A stretch of DNA of 32,000 nucleotides from Rivularia sp. MS3 (GTDB lineage: Bacteria > Cyanobacteriota > Cyanobacteriia > Cyanobacteriales > Nostocaceae), in the NCBI GenBank assembly GCA_019192545.1, contig JAHCMI010000078.1:10030-42029 (forward strand). Reading direction: 5' to 3'. The notes under the pieces were generated by a model. It saw nothing but the letters and a program-made list of their open reading frames with translations. It searched no databases and was not told where the DNA came from. Positions 5,908-23,616 of the stretch are shown here, piece after piece. How positions within the stretch are numbered: the stretch's first letter is position 1; every line of letters begins with the position of its first letter. A program made the position numbers and the translations under genes.

Positions 5908-6411
5908 ATGGACGCAATTTATATTCCCCAACTTGCTCAAGCGTCAAAACCGATAGAAGAAATAGCAGTAAAAGAATTCTTACCCGGATTAGAAACTTTA
6001 ACACCAGTTCGCGGCAATCTTCGCGTGGAACATCGCGGTAATTTCTTAGAAGTAGCCGCACAAGCTGAAGCAATCATGACTTTAACCTGCAACCGTTGCT
6101 TGCAGCAGTACAATCATCGGGTTCTGCTTGATACTTCAGAAATCATTTGGTTGGAAGAAAATGCTCAGGAAGAAGAAGAATTTCTTGCTGAAAGAGAAGT
6201 AGCAATAGAAGATTTGGTAGAAACTTTATCCCCATATGGATACTTTCATCCCAGCACTTGGTTATACGAACAAATGTGTTTGGAAATTCCCCAACGTCAG
6301 TTATGCGACAAAGATTGTCCGGGAATTGAGCAGAATCGAGATGCTAAAGCAGAAGATAAGCCAATTGATAGCCGTTGGGCTTCTTTACAATCTTTAAGAA
6401 AGCAATTGTAA
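5908..6411 (+). CDS. YceD/DUF177 family protein
   Basis: Paired cysteine motifs LTCNRCL and LCDKDCPG are typical of DUF177. I prefer ATG 5908 (MDAIYIPQL) over the track's start at 5839, which lies only 8 nt after the jag stop. Confidence 0.82.
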   Translation: MDAIYIPQLAQASKPIEEIAVKEFLPGLETLTPVRGNLRVEHRGNFLEVAAQAEAIMTLTCNRCLQQYNHRVLLDTSEIIWLEENAQEEEEFLAEREVAIEDLVETLSPYGYFHPSTWLYEQMCLEIPQRQLCDKDCPGIEQNRDAKAEDKPIDSRWASLQSLRKQL

Positions 6412-17608: not shown

Positions 17609-19045
17609 ATGCTGCAATCTATCGAACAACGCATTCAAAGTATCATTAATAATCTCTTACCAAAGACAGCCATCGAAGGAAAATTCGGTACGCCAAAAAC
17701 TCTCCACGAACAATTAGAGCGTTACCATACTCCAGGAATTAGTATTGCAGTTATAAATAATTTTGAAATTGAATGGGCGCGGGGATTCGGGTTATGCGAA
17801 GCAGGAACAAGCCGCGAAGTTACTACAGATACCTTGTTTCAAGCTGGCTCAATTAGTAAACCCGTTTTTGCTTTAGCACTAATGCGTCTCGTACAAGAAG
17901 GCATTCTTAATCTTGATGAAGATGTTAATTCTTATCTCACCTCATGGCGAGTACCTGCAAATGGTGAGTGGCAACCATGTGTTACTTTGCGACAGCTACT
18001 AAGTCATACAGCAGGAATGACTGCACAAGGCTTTTACGGCTATCACGTCTCGGCTCCCTTACCTACAACAATTCAAGTGCTTAATGGTGAATTACCTGCA
18101 AATAGCGAGAAAGTAGAAGTTAATGTGATACCTGGGTTGAATTACCGCTATTCAGGTGGTGGCATGGTTGTTGCACAGCAGGTATTAGTAGATGTGCTGA
18201 AGAAACCTTTTCCAGAAATTATGCACGAATTGGTTTTACAACCGCTCGGCATGAGCAATAGCACTTATCAACAGCCGCTTTCAACTGATTGGGCAATAAA
18301 AGCAGCAACCGCTCATCCAATAAACGGCACTCCTCTAGGAGGAAAGTATTTTATCTATCCCGAAATGGCAGCAGCAGGTTTATGGAGTACACCAACAGAT
18401 TTAGCCAAGCTCGGAATCGAAATAATGCAAGTGTTGCATGGTAAATCTACTGGTTTATTGAGTAAAGAAACGATTGAAGAAATGTTGCATCCTCAGACAG
18501 AACAATCACAAGGAGCAAATGGATTATTTTTTGCATTAGGCTTTGCAGGAAATGGAACTGGTGATGGTTCTTACTTCTTTCATGACGGTACTAACATCGG
18601 ATTTATAGCATCAACGCGCTTTTATTCGCGCATTGGAAAAGGGATTGTTATTATGCTCAACTCCAATGAAGGCGAACCTTTGCGCGAGGAAATTATGAAG
18701 GCGATCGCACTTGAATACGATTATCCCGATGCATTTCCCCAAGAAAGAAAAACCGTCACTTTGTCGCAGCTTGATAGCTATTCGGGAGTCTATTTAACTA
18801 AATCTGGATTGCAATTTAAAGTAATCAATCGGGATGATAATTTGTTCTTAGAATGTCAGCAGCAACCACTTTTACAATTATTTCCAACATCAGAGTTAGA
18901 ATTTTTTGCTAAAGCCGTAAATGCAAATATTTCTTTTGAAAAAGATAATACGGGGAATATTACTGTAATGATTTTAAACCAAGCAGGTGTCATGAGTTTA
19001 AGACCGCAAGCTGATAAATATATTAGAGCAGAGAAAATTAAATGA
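17609..19045 (+). CDS. Serine hydrolase, beta-lactamase (class C / DD-peptidase) fold, with an extra C-terminal domain
   Basis: 478 aa. Contains the SxxK motif (FQAGSISKPVFALAL), YSGGG (a YxN-like position) and a late HDGTNIGF (KTG-like) motif. About 100 extra C-terminal residues. Confidence 0.86.
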   Translation: MLQSIEQRIQSIINNLLPKTAIEGKFGTPKTLHEQLERYHTPGISIAVINNFEIEWARGFGLCEAGTSREVTTDTLFQAGSISKPVFALALMRLVQEGILNLDEDVNSYLTSWRVPANGEWQPCVTLRQLLSHTAGMTAQGFYGYHVSAPLPTTIQVLNGELPANSEKVEVNVIPGLNYRYSGGGMVVAQQVLVDVLKKPFPEIMHELVLQPLGMSNSTYQQPLSTDWAIKAATAHPINGTPLGGKYFIYPEMAAAGLWSTPTDLAKLGIEIMQVLHGKSTGLLSKETIEEMLHPQTEQSQGANGLFFALGFAGNGTGDGSYFFHDGTNIGFIASTRFYSRIGKGIVIMLNSNEGEPLREEIMKAIALEYDYPDAFPQERKTVTLSQLDSYSGVYLTKSGLQFKVINRDDNLFLECQQQPLLQLFPTSELEFFAKAVNANISFEKDNTGNITVMILNQAGVMSLRPQADKYIRAEKIK

Positions 19046-19464: not shown

Positions 19465-19809
19465 ATGGAAGCACAGCCACGAGAAATTAGGAATTATCAA
19501 ACCGTTAATGGAAAAGAACCTTTTGATGAATGGCTTAATTCACTGCGAGATATTCAAGTACGAGTCAAAATAGAGAAAAGACTTAGCCGTGTTGCAGAGG
19601 GTAATTTAGGAAATGATCGTTCAGTAGGAAATGGTGTTTGCGAACTAAAAATTAATTATGGTGCAGGATATCGAGTGTATTTTGGACAAATAGGCTCGGA
19701 AATTATACTCCTTCTGTGTGGTGGAGATAAAAGCACTCAACAACAAGATATTCAAAAAGCAAAGGAATACTGGGAAGATTATGAAAGACGTGAAAGCAGC
19801 GACAAGTAA
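19465..19809 (+). CDS. Type II toxin, addiction-module killer protein (TIGR02683-type; RelE/ParE superfamily, HigB-like)
   Basis: 114 aa. FDEWLNSLRD...RVKIEKRLSRVAEGNLGNDRSVGNGVCELKINYGAGYRVYFGQIGSEIILLLCGGDKSTQQQDIQKAKEY matches the canonical killer-protein pattern (..GVsELRidyGpGYRvYF...g..iiLLlcGGdKssQ..DI..A). Confidence 0.88.
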   Translation: MEAQPREIRNYQTVNGKEPFDEWLNSLRDIQVRVKIEKRLSRVAEGNLGNDRSVGNGVCELKINYGAGYRVYFGQIGSEIILLLCGGDKSTQQQDIQKAKEYWEDYERRESSDK

Positions 19810-20101
19810 TAGTTATAGAGAATCTCTCATCAATTCTCTCAAAGATTCCGAACACGCTGCGGCGTACATCGCAGTAATGTTGGAATTAGATGAAGATGGT
19901 TACGACGCTAAAATTTTTCGTTCCGCTTTAGAAGAAGTTGTCGAAGCAAGAAAACGCAGCGATGATTTTTCTCAAACAGCGCAACAAAATTACGAACAAC
20001 TCGATAAAATACTGGCTGAAACTGGTGGTGCGGAAATTCTGAAGTTGATTGAATTTTTAGATGCTTTGGGTTATCGGATTGCTCTATTTGATAAAGATTG
20101 A
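19781..20101 (+). CDS. Cognate antitoxin, addiction-module antidote protein (TIGR02684-type, HigA-like)
   Basis: I prefer ATG 19781 (MKDVKAATSNSYRESL...), which overlaps the toxin 3' end by 29 nt. Pattern AAAYIAVMLELDEDGYDAKIFRSALEEV...LIEFLDALGYRIAL. Toxin-first gene order is typical of this family. Confidence 0.8.
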   Translation: MKDVKAATSNSYRESLINSLKDSEHAAAYIAVMLELDEDGYDAKIFRSALEEVVEARKRSDDFSQTAQQNYEQLDKILAETGGAEILKLIEFLDALGYRIALFDKD

Positions 20102-20220
20102 TTTATGGAAGTTATGGTAATTATTTGTTGGAGAATATCAGCAATTTAGTACGTCTTTCTCCGGAATAGCTGTTGTCGAGCTAGAATCTAACAGTATTAT
20201 TACTGTTGACTAAGTGATTT

Positions 20221-20640
20221 ATGGAACATTTAACCGCTGCTACTATCGCGACTCTCGCTTTTAGAAAAGCCTTTGAAAAGAGTATTGATAAGATTACAGA
20301 AGCTACTTGGAATAAGATTAACAATTTGCGTGAGAAGATTTGGCAGAAGTTACGGGGTAATTTGGAAGCTGAAAAAGCTTTAGCTGCTGCTGAAAAAGCT
20401 TCTAAACCAGATTTAGATTTGGTTGCTGGGTATTTAAAGCAAGAAATGGAATGGGATGATAATTTTACTCAAGAAGTGCAAACTCTAGCGCGTGAGATTC
20501 AGCAAGATATTGATATTAATACAATTCAAGGGCAGAACGTGCAGAATGTCTACGGTGGAGAAGCCGAACAAAATAATGCTAACAATACCAACGCTCCAGT
20601 AATTCAAGGTGGTAGCGGACACAATATTACGTTCAATTGA
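20221..20640 (+). CDS. 139-aa helical N-terminal module with a G/N/Q-rich tail; in frame with the downstream NB-ARC ORF and separated from it by one TGA
   Basis: MEHLTAATIATLAFRKAFEK... is a hydrophobic/amphipathic first helix, followed by helical heptad-like sequence. The tail is IQGQNVQNVYGGEAEQNNANNTNAPVIQGGSGHNITFN, then TGA at 20638-20640. Both 20221 and 20695 have coordinates of the form 3n+1, so they share a frame. Confidence 0.6.
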   Translation: MEHLTAATIATLAFRKAFEKSIDKITEATWNKINNLREKIWQKLRGNLEAEKALAAAEKASKPDLDLVAGYLKQEMEWDDNFTQEVQTLAREIQQDIDINTIQGQNVQNVYGGEAEQNNANNTNAPVIQGGSGHNITFN

Positions 20641-20694
20641 CTACAGCCGTCGGTACGGGAACCGACAAAGTTTAATCCCATCAAATCTATTCCT

Positions 20695-22017
20695 GTGCGT
20701 GGTGTCGCTCGTTTTGTGGGACGACAGCAGGAACTCATCATGCTGCACAAACACTTGCAAAACACCGCTACAGTGGCGATTTCGGCTGTAGCTGGAATGG
20801 GCGGTGTAGGTAAAACTGAGTTAGCGACGCAATACACAAACCAACATGAAGCAGATTATCCGGGGGGTATTTGCTGGTTAAATGCTAGGGAAACCAATTT
20901 AGCAGCAGAAATTATTCAAATTTTTCAGCTACATACAAATCTTCAAGTACCGCAAAAGGTAGCGGGAAAACCCCTAACTTTACAAAAACAAGTAGAGTGG
21001 TGTTGGCAGAATTGGCAACCAGCAGAAGGTTTGGTGTTGTTGGTATTTGATGATGTTACCGATTTAGATAATTTTCGCCAGGTATTATCAACCGCTAACC
21101 GCTTCCGGATATTGCTAACAACCCGATTGCGAAATCTTGACGCTAACATTCAGGAAATATCCCTGGATGCCTTATCACCAAATGACGCTTTGCTACTTTT
21201 GAAAGCTTTGGTAGGTGAAAGAGCTAATTGTGCATCAGAATTATGTGAATGGCTGGGTTATCTTCCTTTAGGTTTGGAATTAGTTGGACGCTATTTACGA
21301 GAAGATCCCGATTTATCGGTAGCGCAAATGTTGCAAAGACTAAAAGATAAGCGACTCGAAGACGAAGCGTTGCAACATTCAGCAAAATCTTTGAGTACCG
21401 CACAGCTAGGGGTACAAGCAGCATTTGAATTAACCTGGCAAAAATTAGATGCAAATACTCAAACTATCGCGCAGTTTTTAAGTTTGTTTGCACTTGATGT
21501 TATTCCTTGGGAATTTGTAGAAAGGGGAATTTTCTCTTTAGATGTTCTGGACAAGGAAGTAAATCAAGCCAAAAAACAACTTTATAAACGGAACTTAATT
21601 CAAAGGCTGGAACAGGGAGAAGCTTGCTACAAAATTCATCCTTTAATTCGGGAGTTTTTGCAATCGAAGTTAGGGAATAACTCCAATAAAAACGATTTTA
21701 AACAAGCCTTTGCAGCAATATTTCTAGAAATTGCCCAGCAAATACCACAATCTCTTACTCTTGAAGATATTGATTCAGTGCAACTCGCAATACCTCATTT
21801 AGCAGAAGTAGCAGAAAATCATCCCTCCACCGCTACGAGCTTGAACAACTTGGCAGGAATTTACGATTCCCAAGGACGTTACGATGAAGCCGAACGCCTA
21901 TATATCCAAGCTTTAGAAATATGCGAAAAAATATTAGGTGAAAATCACACTACAACTAAAATAGTTTGTAAAAATATAGAAATCATGCAGCGAGAAAGAA
22001 ACAAGAAAAAACCTTAG
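20695..22017 (+). CDS. STAND NTPase, NB-ARC (AP-ATPase) domain with a collapsed C-terminal TPR region; possibly the 3' part of a disrupted or readthrough gene 20221-22017
   Basis: Contains Walker A (GMGGVGKTELA), Walker B (LVLLVFDDV), RILLTTR, and the GxP/helical-domain motif WLGYLPLGLELVG. Only about 1.5 TPR units are present (ATSLNNLAGIYDSQGRYDEAERLYIQALEICEKILGENH). The 18 codons upstream (20641-20694) are open, and the conserved entry motif (NPIKSIPVRGVARFVGRQQEL) straddles the predicted GTG start. There is no SD. Confidence 0.85.
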   Translation: MRGVARFVGRQQELIMLHKHLQNTATVAISAVAGMGGVGKTELATQYTNQHEADYPGGICWLNARETNLAAEIIQIFQLHTNLQVPQKVAGKPLTLQKQVEWCWQNWQPAEGLVLLVFDDVTDLDNFRQVLSTANRFRILLTTRLRNLDANIQEISLDALSPNDALLLLKALVGERANCASELCEWLGYLPLGLELVGRYLREDPDLSVAQMLQRLKDKRLEDEALQHSAKSLSTAQLGVQAAFELTWQKLDANTQTIAQFLSLFALDVIPWEFVERGIFSLDVLDKEVNQAKKQLYKRNLIQRLEQGEACYKIHPLIREFLQSKLGNNSNKNDFKQAFAAIFLEIAQQIPQSLTLEDIDSVQLAIPHLAEVAENHPSTATSLNNLAGIYDSQGRYDEAERLYIQALEICEKILGENHTTTKIVCKNIEIMQRERNKKKP

Positions 22018-22044
22018 TGGAAGCGACTTTTTGGTTAATAAGAG

Positions 22045-22090
22045 CTCTCTCTTCTTCTCTTCCTCTGCGCTCTCTGCGTCTCTGCGGTTT
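22045..22090 (+). repeat. Dispersed CT-rich (CTCTGCG)n repeat element, copy 1
   Basis: CTCTCTCTTCTTCTCTTCCTCTGCGCTCTCTGCGTCTCTGCGGTTT. Related copies lie at 29469-29520 (same orientation) and 27747-27786 (inverted). Confidence 0.7.
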
Positions 22091-22119
22091 ATTATTCATT
22101 AGTTTAAAAATTAACAGAT

Positions 22120-22185
22120 GGTGCGTGACGGTATTTTCAAATGATTTCGTTAAAGTTGATAAATTATCGTCACCGTCACAGCACC
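22120..22185. repeat. Imperfect inverted repeat (13-bp arms with one bulge, 39-nt loop), hairpin or MITE-like module
   Basis: GGTGCGTGACGGT (22120-22132) pairs with ACCGTCACAGCACC (22172-22185). It lies between the convergent STAND and histidine kinase genes, so it may act as a bidirectional terminator. Confidence 0.55.
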
Positions 22186-22197
22186 CTACAAAAAACC

Positions 22198-22225
22198 AAT
22201 GCCCAATGCCCTATGCCCAATTCCC
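22198..22225. repeat. STRR-like heptamer tandem repeat (AATGCCC-type, 4 units)
   Basis: aatgccc aatgccc tatgccc aattccc, abutting the histidine kinase stop codon. Confidence 0.7.
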
Positions 22226-23616
22226 TAAACCGGCAAACAAACTGTAAAAATACTACCTTCACTCAATTTAGAACGCACGGAAACTTTACCACCCATTCCT
22301 TCAACTAATGTCTTAACTATCGATAATCCTAAACCAGTTCCACCAGCACGATTGCGGGCTTCATCTATTCGGTAAAAGCGCTCAAATATCCGCGATTGAT
22401 GTTGTAAGGGTATGCCATAACCTACGTCGCAAACTTGAACGCATCCCTCGTCTTCTTTACGAGTTAATTTTAAGGTAATTGGTGTTCCTGGTTCGGAATA
22501 TTTAACAGCATTGTCTATTAAGTTAAGCAATATTTGTTTGAGACGAGCATAGTCTGCTTTGACTTCAATTATTTCTGTTGAAGCTTCAATTTGAATATCT
22601 CTTTCGCTGCATTTATCAGCCATGTCTACAGCTTCGATAACTACATCATTTAAAACACAGTTTTCTATATTTAAATGTAAATTACCGTGGTCTGCTCTGG
22701 CTAACTCCAACAAATCTTGTAATAAACTGATGGTATTATCTGCTTCCGATGCGGCAGTTTCTAAAGCTTCTTTTTGGATTTCTGTTAAGTTCTGCTGTCT
22801 TCTTAATATACTTTGTAAGTAACCGTGGACTATTGTTAAAGGAGTGCGTAATTCGTGGGATACGTTACTGACAAATTGACGTTCTTTTTCCCAGGAATCG
22901 GAAAGACGAGCCAGCATCATATTACAGGTTTGGGCTAACTGTTTAACTTCACTTGGTGCTTTGTCTAAATACAGTTGTGCTTTTCCTAAATCGTCAGCAG
23001 AAATGACTTCTGTCATTTGACTTAGTTGACGTAAAGGTTTTAAAGAGCGCTGGATATAAACAGCAATTGCGCCCGCCATGATGACAATTACTAAAACGCT
23101 GGTAACACCTACACCTTGCATCATTGCGACAAACATTGTTTGGTCGCGGGTGATATCTTGGGCTACTAAAATCTTACCGATTACTTTTCCCTGGATGCTC
23201 AAATCATCGCTACATAATACATAATAACGATTATCAATTTGGATAACTTTTGGTTTGATTCGTACTTTTGTAAAAGCAATTAATCGATTTTTGTCCGAGT
23301 TAGATGAGGTCATCAATGTATTAGATTTAGCTAATACTTGATTATCTAAACCTTCGACCCATAACAATGCATTATTAATCTTGAAATTATTAATTGCTTC
23401 AGAAATTGCTTTTTCTTCCGAACCCATTTTACTTAACATTTCAACATCGCGAGGAATTGTTGTAGCGATTTCTTCAATATTTTTTTTATGATTTTCAATC
23501 AGTATTCGCTGCATTCTCCAACCAGTCCAAGAAGCAAGACTTCCCAAACCTAGAATTGAAAAGGCTGCGACACCAGCCGTTAAACGTAATCTTAATGAAT
23601 TAAAGTCGAATTTCAT
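22225..23616 (-). CDS. Sensor histidine kinase (2 TM + periplasmic loop + HAMP + HisKA + HATPase_c)
   Basis: 463 aa. H-box SHELRTPLT, N-box LLNLIDNAVKYS, G-boxes DVGYGIP and GTGLGLSIV. No response regulator gene is present anywhere in the window. Confidence 0.92.
   Translation of the reverse strand: MKFDFNSLRLRLTAGVAAFSILGLGSLASWTGWRMQRILIENHKKNIEEIATTIPRDVEMLSKMGSEEKAISEAINNFKINNALLWVEGLDNQVLAKSNTLMTSSNSDKNRLIAFTKVRIKPKVIQIDNRYYVLCSDDLSIQGKVIGKILVAQDITRDQTMFVAMMQGVGVTSVLVIVIMAGAIAVYIQRSLKPLRQLSQMTEVISADDLGKAQLYLDKAPSEVKQLAQTCNMMLARLSDSWEKERQFVSNVSHELRTPLTIVHGYLQSILRRQQNLTEIQKEALETAASEADNTISLLQDLLELARADHGNLHLNIENCVLNDVVIEAVDMADKCSERDIQIEASTEIIEVKADYARLKQILLNLIDNAVKYSEPGTPITLKLTRKEDEGCVQVCDVGYGIPLQHQSRIFERFYRIDEARNRAGGTGLGLSIVKTLVEGMGGKVSVRSKLSEGSIFTVCLPV

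Follow-up and report, generated by a model that had tools for sequence, protein, structure and literature searches.

Multicellular cyanobacteria have Bell/BASS-NLR gene pairs (Dyrka et al. 2020, bioRxiv 10.1101/2020.01.06.895854), in which the gene for a NOD-like receptor (NLR) that consists of an NB-ARC domain and tetratricopeptide repeats (TPR) is directly preceded by that of a small helical effector whose C-terminus carries a G/N/Q-rich motif of 25-40 residues. Bacterial amyloid signalling sequences (BASS) are defined operationally, in that study, by a motif that the effector C-terminus shares with the NLR N-terminus. The fungal HET-S/NWD2 system and the fungal 'all-in-one' HeLo-NLR proteins follow the same logic, in that a pore-forming effector adopts its amyloid fold through nucleation by the NLR, and both fungi and bacteria have two-gene as well as fused versions of effector and NLR. 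Here we describe a locus with the same layout at positions 20221-22017 of a 32,000-nucleotide stretch of DNA from Rivularia sp. MS3 (assembly GCA_019192545.1, contig JAHCMI010000078.1; hereafter the window), where a small helical module with a G/N/Q-rich tail lies directly 5' of an NB-ARC-TPR protein. This locus differs from the Bell/BASS pairs in that its NLR has neither a motif nor a start of its own and is joined in frame to the module through a conserved TGA-C that is followed by an RNA hairpin. On comparative grounds, we consider it probable that 20221-22017 is translated as a single unit across a UGA whose leakiness is programmed.

Translation of 20221-22017 gives 139 codons, the TGA at 20638-20640 and then 458 open codons up to the TAG at 22015. 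The two predicted open reading frames (ORFs), 20221-20640 (ATG start, 139 aa) and 20695-22017 (GTG start, 440 aa), share one frame in which the TGA is the sole internal stop, and the 18 codons between the TGA and the GTG at 20695 are open (LQPSVREPTKFNPIKSIP). The nucleotide directly 3' of the TGA is a C (20641). The GTG has no GGAG-like Shine-Dalgarno sequence 5' of it and lies inside ..IP.RGV..FVGR..EL..LH, the conserved N-terminal lead-in of cyanobacterial NB-ARC paralogues. All of these features had been noted in an earlier interpretation of the locus that was made without database searches (the sequence-only reading), and they are borne out by the translation, by inspection of the sequence and by the paralogues. 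The same is true of the 6-bp hairpin with a 6-nt loop that had been placed after the stop (GTCGGT 20649-20654 / ACCGAC 20661-20666), which is present and is the minimum-free-energy fold. The public annotation splits the locus into a hypothetical protein (139 aa) and a 'tetratricopeptide repeat protein' (425 aa), the latter starting from the internal ATG at 20740-20742; the annotated NLR protein (P0001) begins with MLHKHLQ.

Scanning genomes with the family alignment yielded 80 loci, 57 of which (L004-L060) carry a module ORF that ends in TGA-C. These 57 loci belong to Rivularia, Calothrix, Scytonema, Brasilonema, Tolypothrix, Nostoc, Fischerella, Hassallia, Iningainema, Coleofasciculus, Floridaenema and other genera. 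Together with the window and two close relatives (L001 and L002) they provided 60 junctions, which represent 59 distinct sequences, and at all 60 the module ends in TGA-C. Both the TGA and the C at position +4 are invariant in the 59 distinct sequences, while the codon after the stop is CTR in ~54 of them and the following one CAG in ~49. As a control, we took 218 ordinary ORFs of at least 200 aa from the same loci. TGA is the stop codon of 62 of these, TGA-C is their rarest tetranucleotide (4/218) and TGA-CTR does not occur (0/218). Compared with these control ORFs, the TGA-C arrangement is far beyond chance. A search with the module retrieved 113 homologues, every one a stand-alone protein of at most 155 aa and none fused to a nucleoside triphosphatase (NTPase). 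No protein spanning the tail, the TGA junction and the NB-ARC lead-in was present among the 5.8 billion proteins searched, and neither the module search nor the junction-spanning search found a homologue with a sense codon at the TGA site. Since all 113 homologues stay within 155 aa and no protein spans the junction, the TGA seems to be selected for and not merely tolerated.

A Walker A motif lies within 900 nt of the TGA at 50 of the 60 junctions (47 scanned loci, the window, L001 and L002), in each case in frame 0 and with no further stop in between. The position of the stop along the tail varies between loci (the last residues being ITFN, ITFNN, ITINYNTPPS or YNNHPPD, a shift of 0-8 residues), and the linker from the TGA to FVGR measures 23, 24, 25, 28 or 40 codons, with the frame always kept. 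In 27 of 52 linkers there is no in-frame ATG, GTG or TTG before FVGR. The ORF 3' of the TGA often reaches 740-1054 codons in intact family members, and for ten further pairs the ratio of nonsynonymous to synonymous substitution rates (dN/dS) of this part was 0.20-0.46, at dS values of up to 0.9. Given these ORF lengths and ratios, we conclude that the part downstream of the TGA is translated. Public annotations of several NLRs of this kind start at the Met of Walker A (MGGVGKT..) or at other internal codons, arbitrarily chosen Met or Val (P0036, P0051, P0053, P0059, P0071, P0076, P0105), a systematic mis-annotation that results from the missing start codon.

The junction-spanning search did turn up two NLR fragments with an unusual N-terminus. 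P0234, a Logan/ENA fragment, begins with MEPPERERVKLNPP..FVGR, and P0235, from Scytonema sp. NUACC21, begins with MEPLTAGAIAVGTIVGVKLNPP..FVGR. In both, the MEP... start of the module leads straight into the linker, which looks like an in-frame loss of the module and the TGA. Judged from the sequences, this is the pattern expected of an in-frame deletion inside a single translational unit, and the two proteins could be natural 'sensor-only' derivatives.

While the nucleotides 5' of the TGA are variable, those 3' of it follow the consensus TGA CTR CAG TCG YCC GAA NGG GAA CGG RYA AAG TTA AAT CCC. Synonymous choice is frozen across the 13 codons 3' of the TGA, and the favoured codons are otherwise rare. 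TCG is used in 40/40 cases (background fraction 0.07), CGG in 35/36 (0.17), CAG in 40/40 (0.31), AAG in 48/50 (0.38), TTA in 31/32 (0.27) and CCC in 40/44 (0.26). The invariant FVGR and GMGGVGKT residues of the same genes, in contrast, use 3-4 synonymous codons. The first stem of the element (alignment columns 18-22 / 35-39, corresponding to 20649-20653 / 20662-20666 in the window) starts after an 8-nt spacer and is paired in 97.8% of the alignment cells, whereas slid 3' partners, used as a control, give 24-59%. Compensatory double changes are found at three of the five stem pairs (C-G to U-A in 21 sequences, C-G to G-C in 11), and RNAalifold independently predicts the same stem. The codon freezing and the covariation together argue that the 40 nt 3' of the TGA are constrained as RNA. 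The sequence-only reading had asked whether orthologues keep the TGA and the hairpin or carry a sense codon instead, and the comparison answers in favour of conservation for both. An Rfam scan of the junction region matched no family, and a regular-expression search of the window and the retrieved loci gave no copies of the element beyond the known junctions.

One locus separates the RNA from the peptide that it encodes. In L007:4418-4480 (Fischerella muscicola SAG 1427-1), an additional G in the hairpin loop (+1) is followed 27 nt later by a -1 deletion. About nine linker codons are consequently read in the other frame (LQSPDRGTGKVKSPRY vs LQSPERERAKLNPPNN), while the RNA element and the overall frame are kept. 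This compensated shift is a natural experiment, and it shows that the RNA and the frame, but not the peptide, are what is constrained.

For the module itself, AlphaFold2 predicts a helical bundle of residues 6-102, with an N-terminal hydrophobic helix and block-mean confidence scores (predicted local distance difference test, pLDDT) of 67-87, and a disordered tail of residues 102-139 (pLDDT <50). The C-terminal tail, IQGQNVQNVYGGEAEQNNANNTNAPVIQGGSGHNITFN, is the best-conserved part of the module family. Pfam searches with the module and 51 homologues returned only sub-threshold and inconsistent matches, such as DUF7436 (E 0.006) and ApoLp-III, and a Foldseek search of the AlphaFold2 model against the PDB gave nothing better than E = 3. 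UniRef labels P0137 as 'NACHT-NTPase and P-loop NTPases N-terminal domain', which hmmscan did not confirm.

Relatives with ~50% identity to the module occur in classical two-gene pairs (L061-L079). Their stop is TGA-A or TAA with no hairpin 3' of it; the module ends in ..MSQINQDNAKGWQNKIDGGTVYQGDINIHHAPPNS and, 11 nt on and in another frame, the NLR begins with MNQSNQDNARGWETEVKGGTVYQGDIRINN... In L061, L064, L066 and L074 the NLR, which starts from an ATG of its own, has an N-terminal copy (..GGTVYQGDIRINN) of the module tail ..GGTVYQGDINIHH. Many paralogous NB-ARC-TPR proteins, too, have their own N-terminal motif, MTNENWQGINIKGG.N.I.NPTFNF. A tail motif between the TGA and FVGR was found neither in the window nor at any readthrough-type locus. 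Because the NLR of these loci lacks both the motif and a start codon, it would acquire the motif only via translation through the TGA, and a screen for paired BASS motifs would miss such loci. The linker of the two-gene NLRs (L061-L079) reads ..QLQSSPPNNIPYRGVANFVGR, and that of the readthrough type (L004-L060) reads LQSS-ERERTKLN-PPNNIPYRG directly after the stop. Since the linkers otherwise match, the hairpin-coding segment looks like an insertion into a shared LQSS..PPNNIPYRG linker, which hints at how one architecture may have arisen from the other.

Among the alternatives to a leaky UGA, an ordinary two-gene operon survives best, though we regard it as unlikely. The NB-ARC protein would then start independently, at GTG 20695 or at a later ATG, and the shared frame would be incidental or the relic of an ancestral fusion. 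This would agree with the two separate genes of the public annotation and with the conservation of a GTG at this position in the window, L001 and L002, and the lack of a Shine-Dalgarno sequence does not speak against it, as such sequences are missing from many cyanobacterial genes. It does not account for the 27 linkers devoid of ATG, GTG and TTG, nor for a frame that is kept at 50/50 Walker A junctions through indels and a compensated frameshift. Moreover, the GTG lies inside the conserved lead-in IP.RGV..FVGR, the 40 nt 3' of the stop are constrained as RNA, and an NLR made from the GTG would lack the motif for signalling to the effector that the NLRs of the true two-gene relatives possess. 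The sequence-only reading had considered independent initiation unlikely. This holds for the half of the family with start-less linkers, but it is less secure for the clade of the window, where independent initiation is possible because of the conserved GTG.

The conserved RNA element could equally serve a non-canonical form of coupling, an explanation that we consider very unlikely. Ribosomes would terminate and then reinitiate, or slide, at a non-standard codon while the hairpin tethers or pauses them, or a dedicated suppressor tRNA(UCA) would read the stop. Termination-reinitiation is reported to be common in prokaryotes (PMC6728339). Reinitiation requires a nearby start codon but no kept frame, and neither fits the junctions. 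There is no tRNA gene in the window, and a suppressor tRNA would be a variant of readthrough and not a true rival to it.

A shade less probable again is that the UGA encodes selenocysteine (Sec), with the hairpin acting as a bacterial selenocysteine insertion sequence (SECIS) that is bound by SelB. A UGA closely trailed by a conserved hairpin with a G-rich loop is what such a system would show, and Sec insertion likewise yields terminated and extended products (PMC7026636). However, the Sec-decoding trait has not been reported in the cyanobacteria analysed, which have selD without it (PMC1273633; selA, selB and selC were not searched in the host genomes here). Furthermore, no homologue has a Cys or any sense codon at the site, which lies in a variable linker instead of a redox centre and shifts by 0-8 residues relative to the tail. 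The stem is only 5 bp long, and the junction has no match in Rfam.

The age of the TGA can be judged from the closest NTPase homologues, L001 on a syntenic JGI contig and L002 and L003 on Logan contigs. All three have TGA-CTACAG after ..GHNITFN, with the same frame on either side of it, and all three keep the hairpin arms; the loop of L001 has an in-frame 3-nt deletion. Among the window, L001 and L002, Nei-Gojobori estimates of dN/dS are 0.23-0.38 for the module and 0.21-0.28 (dS 0.24-0.30) for the 376 NB-ARC/winged-helix codons 3' of the TGA, and none of the three has a frameshift within these 376 codons. Fresh inactivation of the gene by the TGA, one of two readings that had been offered from the sequence, is thus excluded, because the TGA predates the split of these lineages and the downstream coding region has remained under purifying selection. 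The other of the two, in which readthrough yields both a free module and a full-length sensor, is supported by the conserved TGA-C and hairpin, by the purifying selection and by the start-less linkers. The least probable of all alternatives, a nonsense pseudogene in which the TGA inactivated a formerly fused gene and left a dead locus, would explain the collapsed TPR sensor of the window, the additional stops and frameshift of L001 and L002 and the truncation of some family members, but it is contradicted by a TGA-C at 60 junctions and at 20 further loci retrieved with the RNA element, across genera with saturated synonymous sites, by the downstream dN/dS of 0.2-0.46, by the lack of an ancestral sense-codon form among the proteins searched and by the different look of genuine lesions (TGA-T, TAG), each of which is restricted to one lineage; pseudogenisation is therefore excluded for the TGA, though not for the sensor part of this copy.

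Several observations nevertheless weigh against the interpretation of this locus as a single translational unit with a leaky UGA. In addition to the GTG that is conserved in its clade, these concern the state of the window copy and its relatives. Pfam detects NB-ARC and just one TPR_10/TPR_12 unit in the window copy, whereas about six TPR units, besides a degenerate first one, are present in L001. The window has lost this degenerate first TPR and all but ~1.5 repeats, in what is a lineage-specific in-frame deletion between GAAAATCAYCC direct repeats; the collapse of the sensor noted in the sequence-only reading stands. With its sensor cut back this far, the window copy may be a non-sensing or decaying family member. 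L001 has a CGA>TGA nonsense mutation that replaces an Arg codon in TPR1, in a TGA-T context (6353-6355), and L002 has a TAG in the module (559-561) and a frameshift before the TPRs (~1960), both lesions being the same in two separate sequencing runs. The lineage of the window, L001 and L002 may thus be decaying or under diversifying turnover. Elsewhere in the family, L006, L036, L039, L045 and L059 are truncated 3' of the TGA.

Other points on the same side concern the RNA element, the decoding and the module. The hairpin is short (5-6 bp) and its folding energy is no better than that of shuffled sequences (z -0.8 to +0.4). As shuffles fold equally well, we dropped folding energy as evidence and used covariation and codon freezing instead. 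A second helix, in which GGGA of the loop would pair with a downstream UCCC, is paired in 92% of the cells but is mostly invariant, with one compensatory event, in L019 and L039 (CGGA/TCCG); the UCCC partner is missing in L013, L027, L031, L038 and L058. The rules on UGA-CUA contexts and 3' structures come from eukaryotes and viruses and may not hold for bacterial release factor 2 (RF2). Translation through the TGA, its rate and the inserted residue are inferred. Finally, the module is a candidate Bell/HeLo effector by its architecture and by homology to the paired-motif relatives, with no significant match to the Bell domain or another family by sequence (Pfam) or by fold (Foldseek, PDB).

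If the locus is indeed translated through its UGA, we envisage the following mechanism. Most ribosomes would stop at TGA 20638 and release a 139-aa protein in which a helical domain that probably targets membranes is followed by an amyloid-type, G/N/Q-rich tail. A few would decode the UGA, most likely with a near-cognate tRNA. By analogy with other bacteria, in which near-cognate tRNAs usually read UGA as Trp, the inserted residue would be Trp. The C at +4, the CUA CAG context and the hairpin (perhaps a pseudoknot) 8 nt 3' of the stop would favour this decoding. Both a C at +4 after UGA and UGA-CUA are established leaky contexts (PMC7026636). The decoding ribosomes would run on into the start-less NB-ARC-TPR sensor, and the rare long product would be an NLR-like sensor that opens with the effector and its tail. 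If this long form behaves like the NLRs of Bell/BASS and HET-S/NWD2, its oligomerisation upon ligand binding could bring the tails together and template an amyloid fold, which would recruit the abundant short form, whose helical domain would then kill the cell. Amyloid formation and cell death as the output are thus suggested by these precedents. In such a scheme, the rate of readthrough would set a low ratio of sensor to effector.

The element does not seem to be tied to one module or one NTPase. A metagenome scan with the RNA element alone gave 20 loci at which the element ends a 140-180-aa MEPLT... helical ORF and is in frame with an NLR, which brings the total to ~80 loci of filamentous cyanobacteria (60 junctions and 20 element-retrieved loci). 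At the element-retrieved loci there are at least three other families of upstream effectors and tails, with tails that end in ..GTTNIGGSHTHNYNT, ..QTIDQRGSTFNL or ..TNQTNNFTV at the stop, and at one of them the downstream partner is a different type of NTPase. In the module-based set, too, the cassette precedes other STAND NTPases and short ORFs that encode no NTPase. In all, the TGA-C junction is in frame with partners other than the usual NB-ARC in L013, L027, L029, L031, L034, L038, L042, L058 and L102. These partners include STAND/NACHT-like NTPases of 1042 to >1329 codons and two shorter ORFs, one of 137 aa and one of 243 aa that contains a hydrophobic stretch; L031, L038 and L058 have no canonical hairpin. 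On balance we favour, with less confidence than we have in the leaky UGA of this locus, a broader view in which filamentous cyanobacteria possess a portable readthrough cassette (UGA-CUR-CAG, an 8-nt spacer and a GC hairpin or pseudoknot). This cassette would let one ORF encode both parts of an amyloid-templated immune or cell-death switch, with the abundant terminated product as the polymerising effector and the rare readthrough product as the nucleating NLR sensor, and it would have been shuffled between effector families and NTPase types. Should this be true, the ratio of sensor to effector would be fixed at the ribosome and the two copies of the motif could not diverge, because one ORF encodes both products.

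The features of the locus are listed in Table 1. The promoter-like site is the only one within 19800-22400, and from the putative promoter and terminator-like sites that flank the module and the NLR, the locus appears to be one transcript. The 80 nt 5' of the module ATG (20140-20220) are conserved among the window, L001 and L002 at near coding level, and contain, besides the TTGTCG/TATTAT site, a TCTCCGGAAT motif. Farther upstream there are two small overlapping ORFs, 19465-19809 (with a weak Gp49/HigB-like match, E 5e-4) and 19718-20101 (no match), which may form a toxin-antitoxin pair. Syntenic L001 has other small ORFs (109 and 106 aa) at the same place and does not have the beta-lactamase-like gene found at 17609-19045 of the window.

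Table 1. Coordinates of features in and around the module-NLR locus, numbered from the first nucleotide of the window.
Feature	Position	Strand	Basis and remarks
Promoter-like site TTGTCG, 16-nt spacer, TATTAT	20173-20200	+	Consensus match only; ~20 nt 5' of the module ATG; conserved in L001, L002
Module helical domain, aa 1-102, opening with hydrophobic helix MEHLTAATIATLAF	20221-20526	+	AlphaFold2 helices, homologues
G/N/Q-rich C-terminal tail INTIQGQNVQNVYGGEAEQNNANNTNAPVIQGGSGHNITFN, candidate amyloid-signalling motif	20527-20637	+	Family conservation, predicted disorder
In-frame TGA, proposed recoding site	20638-20640	+	TGA in 59/59 distinct junction sequences
8-nt spacer CTACAGCC with +4 C and CTA CAG context	20641-20648	+	Junction alignment
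Linker codons from TGA to FVGR, LQPSVREPTKFNPIKSIPVRGVAR, open in frame 0	20641-20712	+	Translation, family alignment
RNA hairpin GUCGGU-ACGGGA-ACCGAC; outer five pairs are the family-wide stem; loop with conserved GGGAA	20649-20666	+	Covariation
TCCC, possible pseudoknot partner of loop GGGA (20657-20660)	20676-20679	+	Alignment pairing; weakly supported
GTG, sole candidate independent start in the linker	20695-20697	+	No Shine-Dalgarno sequence; inside conserved lead-in
NB-ARC NTPase domain; Walker A GMGGVGKT at 20794-20817	20737-21393	+	Pfam PF00931, E 4.4e-15
Winged-helix/DUF7779-like region 3' of NB-ARC	21433-21678	+	Weak Pfam PF25000, E 0.001; conserved with L001, L002
Remnant TPR sensor; deletion junction ENH/PSTATS (~21822/21823); single TPR_10/TPR_12 unit 21829-21966	21814-21966	+	Pfam
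TAG that ends the long frame	22015-22017	+	Translation
Terminator-like hairpin with T tract	22074-22087	+	Sole terminator-like site, 3' of the NLR

Annotation pipelines divide loci of this kind in two, a 'hypothetical protein' and a 'tetratricopeptide repeat protein' that is truncated at its N-terminus, and a portable cassette, if true, would explain dozens of Nostocales NLR genes that seem start-less or are mis-annotated. It would also provide, at ~80 loci, a natural bacterial model of UGA readthrough that is stimulated by a 3' element against RF2, and it would suggest how the amount of a dangerous sensor is held below that of its effector. Both readthrough and NLR pairs with amyloid signalling are known separately, but a portable bacterial readthrough cassette that fuses the two appears to be undescribed. 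The BASS literature that we examined makes no mention of readthrough, of a stop codon or of in-frame joining, and searching the literature for readthrough in connection with BASS, NLRs or Nostocales gave nothing relevant. Bacteria offer hardly any documented case of programmed readthrough in cellular genes, and a recent review names only SacB of B. subtilis beside phage Qbeta (PMC7026636).

Of the described readthrough systems, coat/A1 of coliphage Qbeta (UGA, ~5%; PMC7026636) resembles our proposal in that bacterial ribosomes make an abundant short form and a rare extended form that co-assemble. It differs in belonging to a phage RNA genome, whereas the cassette described here is chromosomal and is reused in many paralogous loci with different partners. 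Viral and eukaryotic signals, with UGA-CUA or UGA-CGG and 3' stem-loops or, in gag-pol of murine leukaemia virus (MuLV), a pseudoknot, have the same layout of UGA, +4 C, CUA and a structure ~8 nt on (contexts, PMC7026636). Those signals act against eRF1 on eukaryotic ribosomes, while the element described here has a stem of 5-6 bp and a weak pseudoknot, and the release factor would be RF2. An 8-nt spacing is found in MuLV and alphavirus-type readthrough signals. A bacterial SECIS likewise combines an in-frame UGA with a conserved hairpin inside the coding sequence, but the element described here has a short stem and sits in a linker, and none of the homologues has a Cys at the site. Compared with HET-S/NWD2, finally, the predicted long product is fused, keeps the amyloid tail and comes from the same ORF as the free effector. 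It would be a hybrid set by translation and, if true, a third architecture of NLR-based amyloid signalling, in between the two-gene and the all-in-one forms.

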